Source: a virus (Duplodnaviria; Heunggongvirae; Uroviricota; Caudoviricetes). From it: a stretch of DNA of 15,634 nucleotides. Location of the stretch: the IMG/VR virus record IMGVR_UViG_2713896900_000009; one strand, written 5' to 3'. Of the stretch, positions 11,240 through 12,671 are shown piece by piece. A program made the translations under genes and the position numbers. Numbering within the stretch: the first letter of the stretch is position 1; each line of letters begins with the position of its first letter. A model generated the notes under the pieces. The model made no database searches, was not told the origin of the DNA, and saw nothing but the letters and a program-made list of their open reading frames with translations.

Positions 11240-11250
11240 TCAATGTTTAT

Positions 11251-11275
11251 GAACCTGCTTCGGCAGGTTTTTTTA
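11251..11275 (+). terminator. Intrinsic terminator immediately after cI
   Basis: Hairpin gaaCCTGC-ttcg-GCAGGtt followed by a run of seven T (11268-11274), 12 nt after the cI stop. Confidence 0.7.
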
Positions 11276-11278
11276 TAC

Positions 11279-11306
11279 TTGACAATGTACCTTTGAGATA
11301 CATAAT
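11279..11306 (+). promoter_or_regulatory. Strong sigma70-like promoter (TTGACA, 16 nt, CATAAT) with an embedded operator-like TGTAC-N7-aTACA site; candidate PL/OL for the early-left operon
   Basis: Seen directly: -35 TTGACA at 11279-11284 and -10 CATAAT at 11301-11306. The spacer contains ATGTACctttgagATACAT (11285-11303), which matches the operator motif of the cI/cro region, and a second ATGTACC follows at 11304-11310. Confidence 0.5.
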
Positions 11307-11432
11307 GTACCCAAGAGAAACAACGAACAGGCAGGACGCCCACGAAGTAGCCGCCTGGGGCATATGAAGTCCAGGATGATTCGTTGAGTCATGTTGTGCC
11401 ACTAGGCACTCATGTTAAAGCAGGTGTATGAA

Positions 11433-11708
11433 ATGAAAGTCCAGATTTTAAACAATAACTGTGAAGTCGTTTGGTCATACGACATAGCCGCCCCTGTAGA
11501 TCAGAGCGGCGATAGCTGGACCAATGGGAAACATCAGATTATGGCTGGAGTTGTGTTCTCTTTACGCCGTGCTTTGGAACAGGCTGAAGTATTTCCATCA
11601 GACCCTGAATGGAAATGGCCTTTTTCTATTTGTCCAAATTCGGAGAGCACATTTCAGAAAATTGGTCAGAAAGTCGCACTCGAAGAGCATCAGCCAACTG
11701 TTTCCTGA
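11433..11708 (+). CDS. Hypothetical small acidic protein (91 aa from the Met with a ribosome-binding site; track ORF starts at 11412), first ORF after the PL-like promoter
   Basis: AGGTG lies 6 nt upstream of the ATG at 11433. No arginine-rich motif, so it does not look like an N antiterminator. No family recognised. Its 3' end overlaps a convergent ORF. Confidence 0.35.
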   Translation: MKVQILNNNCEVVWSYDIAAPVDQSGDSWTNGKHQIMAGVVFSLRRALEQAEVFPSDPEWKWPFSICPNSESTFQKIGQKVALEEHQPTVS

Positions 11709-11871
11709 TTTTTTCAGGTAACTCGTCGGCATCGCAGAAACAACAACGCTCGATCATGTTGAAAGCCGATTCGTAGAACTGTTTCTGCTGAGTGTCGCTG
11801 AGACAGGAAAAGAGCGACGTTACGATGATTTTATTAATTGCATTATCAAGTTCTTTTTCATCAAAAGTCAT
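11626..11871 (-). CDS. Hypothetical small protein (81 aa) antisense to the early-left direction, convergent with and overlapping 11433..11708
   Basis: Good ribosome-binding site (AAGGAAA about 7 nt upstream of the ATG at 11869-11871). Acidic, with a CCFC motif. No family recognised. Not certain that both overlapping ORFs are real. Confidence 0.35.
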   Translation of the reverse strand: MTFDEKELDNAINKIIVTSLFSCLSDTQQKQFYESAFNMIERCCFCDADELPEKIRKQLADALRVRLSDQFSEMCSPNLDK

Positions 11872-11974
11872 TTGATTTTCCTTTTATGTATACGGGCTTA
11901 AAAGGATACCACCGAGCCTGAAGTGGTGAAAAGACAGGCACATAACAGCTAAGTATTTTCAACCAAAGAGAATC

Positions 11975-12300
11975 CTTAGCGTTGTGGTGAATGCGGCTCA
12001 GCGCACGCGGGTTAAGGTTGAGGCTGACAGTCAACCTTCTGTGGATACCCACCCGTCTGGTGTGCAACCTTCGCCAGGCACCGGGAGGCACCCGGCACCA
12101 CAACTTTATGCTGTGTGTAGTCCTGGCGGTACCAGTTTGTACCCTTGCTTCCGGCTGGTACCGTCCTTTTTACAAAACAGAGAAGAGCATCACCGGACGA
12201 CGGGCTCATAACCCAATCCATCCGGGCGGCTGCCACCGCAGGTGTTCTTCTCTGTTTTGTGGAGAAACTAATCGGCCTTGCAGGGTCGATATGATGAGGA
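11975..12300 (+). other. GC-rich, hairpin-dense, apparently non-coding segment; possible structured RNA or cis-acting antitermination/processing element
   Basis: No convincing protein in any frame; the in-frame 5' extension of the downstream gene is Arg/Cys-rich low-complexity. Contains a perfect 8-bp-stem hairpin AAGGTTGA-ggctgacag-TCAACCTT (12005-12029), a pair of complementary GGTACC-containing segments (12117-12124 and 12149-12156) and near-repeats GGCACCGGGAGG / CACCCGGCACC. Confidence 0.25.
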
Positions 12301-12308
12301 GCAGCAAA

Positions 12309-12671
12309 ATGGCTAGCGAACGCAGTACTGATGTGCAGGCATTTATCGGGGAGCTGGACGGCGGCGTATTTGAAACCAAAATCGGCGCAGTTCTCAGTGA
12401 AGTCGCTTCCGGTGTGATGAACACGAAAACCAAAGGTAAGGTCTCACTCAACCTGGAAATCGAACCATTTGATGAGAACCGTGTGAAAATCAAACACAAA
12501 CTCTCATATGTTCGCCCGACTAACCGCGGGAAAATTTCCGAAGAAGACACCACCGAAACGCCGATGTATGTCAATCGCGGTGGTCGCCTGACTATTCTGC
12601 AGGAAGACCAGGGACAATTACTGACTCTTGCCGGTGAACCTGACGGAAAACTCCGCGCAGCAGGTCATTAA
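12309..12671 (+). CDS. yfdP: YfdP-like hypothetical protein (120 aa from the Met with a ribosome-binding site)
   Basis: GAGGAG lies 8 nt upstream of the ATG at 12309. Same length as, and same position relative to the YfdQ-like gene as, E. coli K-12 CPS-53 yfdP. Identity is from recollection of gene order and size, not verified. Confidence 0.45.
   Translation: MASERSTDVQAFIGELDGGVFETKIGAVLSEVASGVMNTKTKGKVSLNLEIEPFDENRVKIKHKLSYVRPTNRGKISEEDTTETPMYVNRGGRLTILQEDQGQLLTLAGEPDGKLRAAGH

Follow-up and report, generated by a model that had tools for sequence, protein, structure and literature searches.

What occupies the G+C-rich, apparently geneless block between the PL promoter and yfdP in the early-left operon of this phage, positions 11975 to 12300 of the 15,634-nt stretch of DNA analyzed here (the window)? 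The window is 99.8% identical to Shigella phage SfV, and its gene order runs cro, cI, PL, orf33, the block, orf32 (yfdP), orf31 (yfdQ), and onward to xis and int. An original prediction, made from the letters of the sequence, had described the block as one hairpin-dense noncoding element that might be a structured RNA, with an HK022 put-type antiterminator as its favored example and a small RNA (sRNA), an RNA antitoxin, or a terminator among the other options.

A structured noncoding block at the entry of the early-left operon

The compositional and structural features first noticed in the block are largely borne out. In 200-nt windows the G+C content is 0.545 to 0.57 over 11900 to 12199, against 0.385 to 0.39 just upstream and 0.475 to 0.48 in yfdP, and the PL-like promoter at 11279 is readily recognized (TTGACA-16-CATAAT, 11/12). 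The predicted RNA fold of 11975 to 12300 has an energy of −141.4 kcal/mol on the plus strand compared with −114.0 ± 5.8 kcal/mol for shuffled sequences (z = −4.7), and the minus strand gives z = −3.8, indicating self-complementarity above chance. The individual stems that had been named do exist, although their coordinates had been set 9 to 11 nt too low. The perfect stem AAGGTTGA/TCAACCTT, originally placed at 12005 to 12029, is the 8-bp core hairpin of Table 1, and the two GGTACC segments (12128 to 12133 and 12158 to 12163) are both arms of a terminator hairpin. The supposed near-repeat GGCACCGGGAGG/CACCCGGCACC is not a repeat; these letters belong to a CCGGG-AGGCA-CCCGG hairpin (P5) stacked on the closing stem of the core.

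We interpret the block as two adjacent plus-strand RNA elements, an sRNA gene of the STnc100/PasD/sRNA-17 kind followed by a cis-acting leader of the first early-left gene, and assign this reading a probability of about 0.65. Both elements lie on the strand of the early-left operon. The noncoding nature, structure, homology, position, and distribution of the block are matters of observation, and the prediction of a structured noncoding RNA agrees with the covariation and with the absence of codon periodicity described below. Compensatory base changes, which had been proposed as a comparative check, were found in both the sRNA core and the leader. The block is not the single element first envisaged: the leader motif in its 3′ third stands apart and has a distribution of its own.

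Table 1. Features of the block and its flanks, in window coordinates
Feature	Position	Strand	Basis or content
Conserved upstream element (module 0), CCACCGAGCCUGAAGUGGUGAAAAGACAGGC, two interleaved 5-bp stems	11909-11939	+	Homology
Possible weak promoter, AAGACA / TATTTT	11931-11936 / 11954-11959	+	Read by eye; under scan threshold
Small-RNA unit, ~190 nt	11980-12171	+	Closing stem, multi-hairpin pseudoknotted core, conserved single-stranded linker, intrinsic terminator
Structured core, STnc100/PasD type	11981-12104	+	Rfam RF02076 match, fold, compensatory variants
Core closing stem (P1), GUUGUGGUG/CACCACAAC	11981-11989 / 12096-12104	+	Fold
Core hairpin P2	11993-12008	+	Fold
Core local hairpin (8 bp)	12014-12021 / 12031-12038	+	Fold
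Pseudoknot, AAGGUUG / CAACCUU (P4 loop)	12014-12020 / 12065-12071	+	Compensatory versions in family
Core hairpin	12042-12053	+	Fold
Core hairpin P4	12057-12062 / 12072-12077	+	Fold
Core hairpin P5, CCGGG-AGGCA-CCCGG	12081-12095	+	Fold
Single-stranded linker (conserved part UGCUGUGUGUAGUC, 12109-12122)	12105-12124	+	Conservation in relatives
Intrinsic terminator: stem 12125-12137 / 12153-12165 (−20.5 kcal/mol), T-run 12167-12171	12125-12171	+	Fold
Leader	12172-12290	+	20-bp stem with three-way junction, then tetraloop hairpin before yfdP ribosome-binding site
Leader motif (module B), three-way junction	12172-12260	+	Covariation, covariance model
Leader P1, 20-bp stem	12172-12191 / 12241-12260	+	
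Leader P2	12193-12197 / 12221-12225	+	
Tip of leader P2, CGGGCUCAUAACCC, GGG/CCC stem and 7-nt loop CUCAUAA	12201-12214	+	Equals E. coli initiator tRNA anticodon arm
Leader P3	12226-12229 / 12236-12239	+	
Leader 3′ part, up to yfdP ATG	12261-12308	+	Includes Shine-Dalgarno 12296-12301
Conserved GGAGAAAC in leader 3′ part	12261-12268	+	
Leader hairpin P4L, UGCA tetraloop	12271-12278 / 12283-12290	+	Fold
yfdP start	ATG 12309	+	Shine-Dalgarno GAGGAG, 12296-12301

The 5′ element is a probable small RNA unit of the STnc100 kind

The covariance scan of Rfam that had been suggested as a check gave a split result: the 5′ element found a family below threshold, and the leader matched none. A permissive search aligned 11959 to 12174 (plus strand) with the full length of STnc100 (RF02076) at 39.9 bits (E = 6e-7), which is below the gathering cutoff of 47 bits, and at gathering thresholds no Rfam family matched in the window. 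Model positions 1 to 206 align, including the closing stem, P4, P5, and the terminator, with core P2 flagged by the model as noncanonical. Homologous loci in phiES15, 118970_sal3, mEp460_4F5, and ST64B score similarly (35 to 41 bits). The exact 22-nt motif CACCGGGAGGCACCCGGCACCA at 12079 to 12100 retrieved at least 120 viral contigs from IMG/VR, nearly all of which follow the plan of core, 25- to 45-nt linker, and terminator; when 10 retrieved or related loci were rescanned, 6 scored 57 to 132 bits against STnc100, so that the window shares this primary-sequence signature with clear members of the family. STnc100 and the window unit have in common the order of closing stem, AAU, hairpin, variable hairpins, P5 hairpin, linker, and terminator, the identical 3′ motif, and a lambdoid prophage setting. 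They differ in that the window has a P2 beginning GCGGC instead of CCCCC and a longer closing stem, and in that it lies in the early-left operon beside the immunity region, whereas described STnc100 copies are found in the late region near Q, stx genes, tRNA genes, or an esterase gene.

Two relatives of this unit have been studied experimentally. PasD, a structural relative of STnc100, has been detected by Northern blotting and RIL-seq (PMC8550237), is stabilized by Hfq, and forms RIL-seq chimeras with mRNAs (PMC8550237; bioRxiv 10.64898/2026.05.13.724894). The sRNA-17 of E. coli K1 (strain RS218) is a 193-nt plus-strand RNA mapped by RACE and Northern blotting in an mEp460-type prophage (Sun et al. 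2020, PMC7719688). We placed sRNA-17 on the sequence by means of the published full-length, RACE, and Northern primers, which span CGTTGTGGTGAATGCG... to ...GGTACCGCTCTTTT; the window contains both, at 11980 and 12170, and the 3′ RACE end of sRNA-17 is the homologous T-run (PMC7719688). The two RNAs occupy the same slot, on the plus strand between the repressor region and yfdP, and agree over their first 16 nt, in the 3′ strand of the closing stem, in the terminator, and in size (191 nt in the window versus 193 to 194 nt). Only the ends are common to both, however: the ∼100-nt interior of sRNA-17 is of different sequence, the linkers differ (AGCCACUGCU versus UUUAUGCUGUGUGUAGUC), 21 nt are inserted between the upstream CTAAGT that both have and the closing stem, and BLAST similarity of the window to mEp460 begins only at 12124 and does not extend over the whole 193 nt. 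The layout of the sRNA-17 interior is nevertheless comparable, with a P2-like GCGCA/UGCGC and a P5-like CCGG/CCGG pairing, and the published alignment of "degenerate sRNA-17s" includes sequences bearing the 3′ part of the window unit (PMC7719688). The sRNA option of the original prediction thus fits the 5′ half of the block, given the subthreshold STnc100 match and the experimental mapping of a homologous unit, and by its sequence element 1 is probably a further member of this known kind of sRNA. Nothing observed here points to the RNA antitoxin that the prediction also listed. A discrete transcript of ∼190 nt and Hfq dependence, both demonstrated by others in relatives, may be expected of the window unit by analogy.

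The structure of the core is supported by variation among its relatives. MAFFT alignment of the cores (module A) misplaces P4 and P5 between subgroups, so we counted variants of the pseudoknot, P1, and P2 sequence by sequence. The closing stem and P2 each occur in several compensatory versions, and P5 is changed to GGUGG/CCACC with an unchanged loop in the Klebsiella and LLS relatives. The P4 loop can pair with a strand located ∼29 to 33 nt from the 5′ end, and this pseudoknot pairing exists in at least 10 compensatory versions among 70 distinct family bodies (for example, AAGGCUG/CAGCCUU in phiES15), with a mean helix length of 5.0 within sequences versus 3.7 across sequences. The pseudoknot and the local 8-bp hairpin noted originally are mutually competing. 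Such a multiway, pseudoknotted, and strongly conserved core is atypical of a plain base-pairing sRNA, and its form hints at a protein or RNA polymerase partner.

Downstream of the core, the linker is conserved in SfV, ST64B, phiES15, and the Klebsiella and LLS relatives and also in loci without the sRNA core, and its sequence UGCUGUGUGUAGUC is a candidate base-pairing seed or Hfq contact region; a search within the window for a complementary target returned only a match at chance level. The hairpin that follows, which a simple terminator scan missed on account of its 15-nt loop, abuts the T-run in 61 of 62 related loci that carry a T-run, with differing stem sequences. The terminator option was therefore also well founded for the 5′ half of the block: this hairpin closes the small-RNA unit on its 3′ side and stands as a barrier before the early-left genes.

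The 3′ element is a conserved leader with an initiator tRNA-like tip

Module B, the folded part of the leader, has strong comparative support. In an alignment of 24 sequences, 94.4% of the paired cells could pair, against 36 to 52% when the partners were slid; eight pairs changed on both sides, and the observed score was reached by none of 500 shuffles. A covariance model scores 119 bits on the plus strand and 43 bits on the minus strand, and the opposite strand would have A-C mismatches in place of the G-U pairs, one of which is a U-G in 21 of the 24 sequences. The inner pairs proposed by RNAalifold were replaced by P2 and an anticodon-like hairpin, since column pair 35-59 covaries (G-C, A-U, G-U) only in that arrangement. 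In the 3′ part of the leader, (G/U)GCA is the commonest predicted tetraloop (39 of the loops tallied), on stems of varied sequence, and 55 of 60 leaders contain GCAG. No Rfam family covers the module B stretch at E values up to 10 save a chance-level match to the hairpin ribozyme (E = 9.6), and the leader is apparently a conserved folded RNA that has been described nowhere so far.

The leader is distributed independently of the sRNA core and of the gene behind it. Module B precedes unrelated first genes, either yfdP-like or rdgC-like, and in Mixta tenebrionis it directly follows a PL-like promoter without the sRNA core. Its exact core occurs in representative genomes of at least 12 genera of Enterobacterales, where, as for the sRNA core, the apparent invariance in large collections arises largely from retrieval by exact patterns. 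Two further possibilities were examined and dropped. A leader peptide starting at GUG 12259 (AUG in relatives) has unconserved frames and peptides and no ribosome-binding site on inspection, and boxA- and boxC-like strings in the 3′ arm of P1 were judged coincidental, as that arm covaries with the 5′ arm and SfV deviates from boxA.

The tip of leader P2 is a 14-nt exact match to positions 29 to 42 of metZ, a length reached in none of 2,000 shuffles of the block, and its sequence is retained in relatives retrieved by BLAST alone (for example, ST64B, Klebsiella, and LLS) despite their diverged flanks. Only the anticodon arm is copied; in the window and in 20 related loci, among them those carrying a tRNA-like cargo, ARAGORN called no tRNA gene. 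The operator of thrS is one of the tRNA anticodon arm mimics known from mRNA leaders. The two are alike in that a hairpin of the 5′ leader reproduces the anticodon loop of a tRNA together with neighboring stem pairs; they differ in that here the copy is of the initiator tRNA, the mRNA is that of a phage operon and not of the cognate synthetase gene, the mimic stands ∼100 nt from the start codon, and any binding partner is putative.

Alternative readings of the block

Could the block instead encode protein, whether as a frameshifted small protein on the plus strand, as YfdP extended N-terminally to ATG 11991, or as a phrog_3651-type ORF on the antisense strand? Long stop-free frames are present on both strands, one of them (226 amino acids) continuous with yfdP; PGAP calls a frameshifted hypothetical protein (a pseudogene) at 11984 to 12294, and PHROGs holds ORF families over the block (phrog_3651, E = 8e-50, minus strand; phrog_33599, E = 1e-15, plus strand). 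Stop-free runs of 51 to 120 codons are indeed common among 46 representative loci, but such frames are expected in G+C-rich DNA, no Pfam family matches, and the phrog_3651 frame would overlap the conserved yfdP on the opposite strand. Alignment with relatives, which could have revealed a conserved frame, shows no third-position bias: substitutions relative to ST64B fall 26/24/25 by codon position (P = 0.96; P = 0.62 to 0.96 against three relatives), while the adjacent yfdP, used as a control, gives 27/34/79 (P = 4e-8). Indels are mostly not multiples of three (5/5 versus ST64B, 10/11 versus the Klebsiella phage, and 7/9 versus LLS), and segment lengths vary freely modulo 3. On these sequence grounds we reject a coding function, which we consider extremely improbable; the original statement that the block has no credible ORF is right in substance even though long stop-free frames exist. 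Scarcely more probable is that the block acts as DNA, as a recombination hot spot, a cassette exchange site, or a protein-binding DNA structure, with a conservation unrelated to RNA. The segment from GTTGTGG to CCACAAC is swapped among phages, with STnc100-like, sRNA-17-like, tRNA-like, or short cargos, hybrids join exactly in the conserved GCGTTGTGGTGAATGCG, and a cruciform could arise from the long inverted repeat in module B. Cassette exchange accounts for this mosaic pattern but not for the covariation, and the retention of G-U pairs whose DNA complement is A-C, the strand asymmetry of the covariance model, the mapped transcript of the homologous unit (PMC7719688), and an architecture of hairpin plus U-tract that makes sense only in RNA all argue for function as a transcript.

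Among the RNA-level alternatives, the put-type antiterminator originally favored, in which nascent module B or the STnc100-like core would bind RNA polymerase and promote read-through of downstream terminators, finds no support and appears unlikely. Like put, module B would be a structured RNA acting in cis, encoded downstream of PL by a lambdoid phage without an N-type protein (PMC9378689): its place is invariably after PL and before whichever gene comes first in the early-left operon, it stands right after the promoter in M. tenebrionis as putL does (PMC9378689), and sequence conservation is far stronger in its junction and loops than in its stems, as for a protein-docking surface. The observation that no arginine-rich N-like protein is evident also stands, no such ORF occurring between PL and yfdP, and an 11-mer, GCGGGTTCAGG, is common to putL and some STnc100 variants. 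Against this, a put RNA is ∼70 nt long with two stem-loops and a triple helix, and neither module resembles it in fold; nothing aligns with putL, read from the HK022 genome, beyond the 11-mer. Rfam holds no put family. The paired copies downstream of PL and PR are absent: pattern searches with three mismatches and a covariance model with filters off returned no further copy of either module B or module 0 on either strand of the 15.6-kb window, its PR side included. Module B is also placed downstream of the terminator most in need of suppression, whereas put is not, and the homologous sRNA-17 transcript ends at that terminator (PMC7719688). We judge it quite improbable that the P2 tip serves as an initiator tRNA mimic, recruiting a factor that recognizes anticodon arms to the early-left mRNA as a translational operator, decoy, or sensor; from sequence, such mimicry is a candidate role. 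Possible partners would be the 30S P site with IF3, MetRS, or a toxin that cleaves tRNA-fMet (VapC/MvpT of Shigella and Salmonella). The match spans three G-C pairs and the CUCAUAA loop and folds as a 3-bp stem with a 7-nt loop, no relative seen has lost GGG, CAU, or CCC, those retrieved by BLAST alone included, and there is general precedent in the thrS operator and in VapC of enteric bacteria, which cleaves the anticodon loop of initiator tRNA. The likeness was, however, spotted post hoc among ∼40 possible tRNA anticodon arms, it comprises three stem pairs only, with tRNA pairs 27-43 and 28-42 mismatched in the leader, position 37 is A or U among relatives, ARAGORN calls no tRNA, and a literature search returned no described precedent in phage leaders.

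A proposed role for the two elements

In our preferred reading of the block as an sRNA gene followed by a leader, element 1 (∼11966/11980 to 12171) would be transcribed in lysogenic cells from a weak promoter immediately before it or cut from longer transcripts. The sRNA would end at its own terminator and act in trans as an Hfq-associated base-pairing regulator through the linker adjoining the terminator, which in turn would stop sRNA transcription, and some of the transcription from PL, before it enters yfdP-yfdQ-yfdR...xis-int. Deletion of sRNA-17 raised yfdP ∼95-fold, an effect that could be due to a cis-acting function of the locus or simply to transcription continuing out of the resistance cassette. 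A homology block common to SfIV, SfII, and others begins at 11905 to 11909, and module 0, present once in the window, is found upstream of 63 of 147 module B loci and may be the promoter/operator region of the sRNA or an RNA element of PL transcripts. A promoter scan upstream of the small-RNA unit gave none at threshold, and the mapped 5′ end of sRNA-17 could be a processed end.

Element 2 (12172 to 12290) would be the cis-acting 5′ leader of the first early-left gene, our best guess being that it controls the processing, stability, or translation initiation of early-left mRNA extending past the terminator. The lambda N leader contains an RNase III hairpin, and similar processing stems occur in phage early mRNAs. 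The long, near-perfect stem of the leader (20 bp, about two helical turns), which likewise follows PL and precedes the first early-left gene, is of the type that RNase III cuts in that system, although simple RNase III sites lack a sequence-conserved three-way junction as a cap. The promoter, the trans targets, the leakiness of the terminator, and all leader functions are inferred. A bolder proposal, which we consider unlikely, is that the leader at 12172 to 12290 represents a new class of cis-acting phage RNA, either an initiator tRNA mimic coupling early-left expression to the translation initiation machinery or to a host nuclease targeting tRNA-fMet, or a second, structurally unrelated protein-independent antiterminator.

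Distribution and significance

The block is widespread, with a match in 2,864 of 5,426 complete E. coli genomes (about half) and further occurrences in prophages of Shigella, Salmonella, Klebsiella, Citrobacter, Enterobacter, and the Erwinia group. In E. coli K-12 the block has been lost from CPS-53, so K-12 transcriptomics are uninformative about it. Despite this spread, annotation pipelines label the block as a hypothetical or frameshifted protein. Recognizing it as RNA removes spurious ORF families, joins STnc100, PasD, and sRNA-17 in a single modular scaffold with a pseudoknot and an interior that differs by exchange between phages, and exposes a conserved leader motif at the entry of the early-left operon, with its recombination, excision, and integration genes, in lambdoid phages lacking N. 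At this operon entry, an RNA with covariation support and an initiator tRNA-like tip is a concrete object for studies of early-left control.

Two conserved RNA structures upstream of yfdP

The GC-rich block between the PL-like promoter and the yfdP-like gene contains two conserved plus-strand RNA structures, the first (a small-RNA unit, ~11980-12171) homologous to known prophage small RNAs and the second (module B, 12172-12290) a distinct leader. The original prediction of raised G+C (0.545-0.57 versus 0.385-0.39 upstream) and of self-complementarity beyond chance (fold z -4.7 on the plus strand, -3.8 on the minus strand) was borne out; its example stems exist, but 9-11 nt further right than placed, and its "near-repeat" is a hairpin. 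That the block has no credible ORF agrees with the substitution and indel pattern, although long stop-free frames are present and ORFs are called by PGAP and PHROGs. Between the block and ST64B, the 75 substitutions are spread 26/24/25 across codon positions (p 0.96) and 5/5 indels break the frame, whereas the adjacent yfdP, as control, gives 27/34/79 (p 4e-8) and one 12-nt indel. Segment lengths among relatives vary freely modulo three, and by these measures the evolution of the block is not gene-like. Minus-strand frames in 12012-12574 match phrog_3651 (E 8e-50); such a frame would be antisense to the leader, terminator and yfdP start, and phrog_3651 probably groups ORFs that were called in error on structured RNA.

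By BLAST, 11850-12350 matches Shigella flexneri phage SfV at 99.8% identity, and the SfV record has the order cro (-), cI (+), cI terminator, orf33, block, orf32, orf31, orf30 ... xis, int. SfV orf32/orf31/orf30 are yfdP/yfdQ/yfdR in RefSeq E. coli prophages, where PGAP labels 11984-12294 a "frameshifted hypothetical protein." The proposed PL-like promoter at 11279 (TTGACA-16-CATAAT) was the top match of the region in a promoter scan. A strong cI terminator, GAACCTGCTTCGGCAGGTTTTTTT, occupies 11250-11274 (+); Rfam matches to rsmX and istR there are weak, cover the terminator only and are not genuine family members. Two convergent ORFs between PL and the block overlap by 83 nt, the minus-strand one head-on to PL transcription. 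Matches to the block occur in 2864 of 5426 complete E. coli genomes. E. coli K-12 CPS-53 (locus L237, 3400-3604) has lost the entire block, retaining only the final ~22 nt leading up to the yfdP ATG, with iteron-like GACGGGTCAGATTTTGA repeats on their 5' side; because of this loss, the RNA elements have never been seen in K-12 transcriptomes.

Features in and around the block
Feature	Position	Strand	Description
orf33	11412-11708	+	98 aa; full-length PHROG match phrog_3195
Unannotated ORF	11626-11871	-	81 aa, good ribosome-binding site; full-length PHROG match phrog_3311
Module 0	11909-11939	+	conserved 31-nt element CCACCGAGCCUGAAGUGGUGAAAAGACAGGC
Pseudoknot partners	12014-12020 / 12065-12071	+	complementarity across family
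Intrinsic terminator	stem 12125-12137 / 12153-12165, then five T	+	fold, -20.5 kcal/mol
P2 tip of leader	12201-12214	+	CGGGCUCAUAACCC, identical to E. coli metZ positions 29-42

Nucleotide comparison depicts the block as a mosaic of modules. In BLAST searches of phage genomes its two halves move independently: Cronobacter phage phiES15 has only the 11982-12122 equivalent plus a terminator, upstream of kil; in Stx2c phages, mEp460 and cdtI the similarity is confined to 12124-12310; and LLS and relatives share only ~62 nt around 12167-12228. In a nine-phage alignment the order is a closing stem, whose interior varies, then a linker that is conserved, a sequence-variable hairpin with T-run, a long stem whose cap is conserved, a short sequence-variable hairpin and the ribosome-binding site. 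These BLAST-derived relatives supply the unbiased evidence of conservation; our larger locus collections were gathered by exact patterns, which makes those patterns invariant partly by construction.

A probable STnc100-type small RNA ending at a conserved terminator

A permissive Rfam search gave a full-length STnc100 (RF02076) match at 11959-12174 with 39.9 bits (E 6e-7), below the 47-bit gathering cut-off; in four other phages the homologous loci reach 35-41 bits. The 22-mer at 12079-12100 retrieved at least 120 IMG/VR contigs. Since 6 of ten retrieved or related loci score 57-132 bits for STnc100 on re-scanning, the window's element lies at the divergent edge of a genuine family. The plan is constant over 85 distinct cores: an xUGGUG...CACCAx closing stem, AAU, a 5-bp hairpin, variable hairpins, GCGCGG, another hairpin, CCGGG-AGGCA-CCCGG, 25-45 unpaired nucleotides and an intrinsic terminator. 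Compensatory versions occur in the closing stem (CAUGGUG/CACCAUG, UGUGGUG/CACCACA, UAUGGUG/CACCAUA), in core hairpin P2 (CCCCC/GGGGG, CCGCG/CGCGG, GCGCA/UGCGC, UCCUUUC/GAAAGGG) and in P5 (CCGGG/CCCGG to GGUGG/CCACC, loop unchanged). At least 10 sequence versions exist of a pseudoknot in which the penultimate-hairpin loop pairs with a strand lying 29-33 nt from the 5' end; in the window, this pairing and the 8-bp local hairpin originally noticed are in competition. Many cores carry a TTGACx-N17-TAnnTT promoter ending ~7 nt upstream of the closing stem, and the scan found none at or above threshold upstream of the window unit.

A T-run lies just upstream of module B in 62 of 65 related loci examined, and in 61 of these 62 a stable hairpin of differing stem sequence abuts it, even in loci without any small-RNA core. 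The first element ends at this conserved terminator.

In E. coli K1, sRNA-17 is a 193-nt RNA mapped by 5'/3' RACE and Northern blot, encoded in an mEp460-type prophage and repressed by ArcA (PMC7719688). The published primers assign it to the yfdP strand, beginning CGTTGTGGTGAATGCG... and ending ...GGTACCGCTCTTTT (PMC7719688). Both boundaries are present in the window, at 11980 and 12170 (span 191 nt), while the interiors differ, and hybrids of the two types exist, joined exactly in the shared 5' segment. By these matches the window unit is the positional homologue of a mapped small RNA, with an STnc100-type interior. Deletion of sRNA-17 raised yfdP about 95-fold, a result consistent with the locus protecting the early-left genes, although an artefact of the cassette would explain the rise equally well. 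PasD, judged to share ancestry with STnc100 (bioRxiv 10.64898/2026.05.13.724894), is stabilised by Hfq, and many mRNAs are recovered with it as RIL-seq chimeras (PMC8550237).

Bona fide STnc100 copies in loci L111, L103, L029 and L114 adjoin phage tRNA genes (the closest to the L111 copy is on its strand, about 80 nt away or less), which suggests co-transcription and tRNA-type processing; L114 has an isrI match in the same stretch. ST64B has an isrK match (locus L003, 19-95, -; 64 bits, above the gathering score) in its early-right region near sb41. In IMG/VR loci L218, L221 and L177, the slot closed by GUUGUGG/CCACAAC (homologous to 11981-12104) contains tRNA-like cargo with D-arm GUAGCUCAAUUGGUUAGAGC, T-arm GGGUUCGAGUCCCGG, a CAU-containing loop and a long insertion; ARAGORN made no call on it. 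Within the STnc100 scaffold, the arrangement of closing stem and P5 is reminiscent of an acceptor stem that stacks on a T-arm.

Upstream of the unit, module 0 comprises two interleaved 5-bp stems (11908-11912/11923-11927 and 11916-11920/11935-11939) in H-type pseudoknot geometry with an A-rich third loop. It precedes 63 of 147 module B loci, some without a small-RNA core, and marks where the homology shared with SfIV and SfII begins on the left. It is a candidate small-RNA promoter or operator, or RNA element of PL transcripts.

A distinct leader at the operon entry

The leader model, from 24 non-redundant sequences over 12163-12268, consists of P1 (20 bp), P2 (5 bp, carrying a hairpin of 3 bp with a 7-nt loop) and P3 (4 bp, length variable). 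Pairing holds in 94.4% of cells, against 36-52% with slid partners. Both sides changed in 8 pairs; doubly changed cells numbered 40, against 13.4 +/- 2.5 in shuffles, and 0 of 500 shuffles reached the observed score; column 18-115 is G-C in 13 sequences and C-G in 11, and P2 pair 35-59 is G-C, A-U or G-U. The covariance model scores 119 bits on the plus and 43 bits on the minus strand and found no second copy in the window; the permissive Rfam search matched no family to the leader. Conserved GGAGAAAC lies 3' of P1, followed by a hairpin of differing stem sequence whose commonest predicted tetraloop is (G/U)GCA (39 of the loops tallied); GCAG occurs in 55 of 60 leaders.

The first downstream gene is yfdP-like in most loci and rdgC-like in others, so the motif is a feature of the entry to the operon and is not tied to a single gene. 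Module B stands directly 3' of a promoter in Mixta tenebrionis, and after a promoter and terminator, without the small-RNA core, in several IMG/VR phages. Representative genomes with its exact core come from Escherichia, Shigella, Citrobacter, Enterobacter, Kosakonia, Mixta, Buttiauxella, Leclercia, Pseudescherichia, Pseudocitrobacter, Erwinia and Klebsiella.

In the initiator tRNA, the metZ stretch matched by the P2 tip supplies the CAU loop of the anticodon arm together with its three G-C pairs, and 0 of 2000 shuffles gave such a 14-nt match. As this is a similarity spotted post hoc, with just three stem pairs formed, we treat it as a lead rather than a finding; we found no precedent described in the literature.

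Proposed function

The original prediction offered, as an example, an antiterminator of the HK022 put type, an RNA that acts without protein. Such a reading is unlikely for the leader, which shows none of the put membership features tested. We favour a small RNA followed by a separate leader. Relatives yield a discrete ~190-nt transcript in lysogens, and one family member depends on Hfq. The small RNA would be made independently of PL and may act in trans through the linker beside its terminator, which would also limit transcription entry into yfdP...int. Polymerase passing the terminator would produce an mRNA whose structured leader may set processing, stability or translation initiation.
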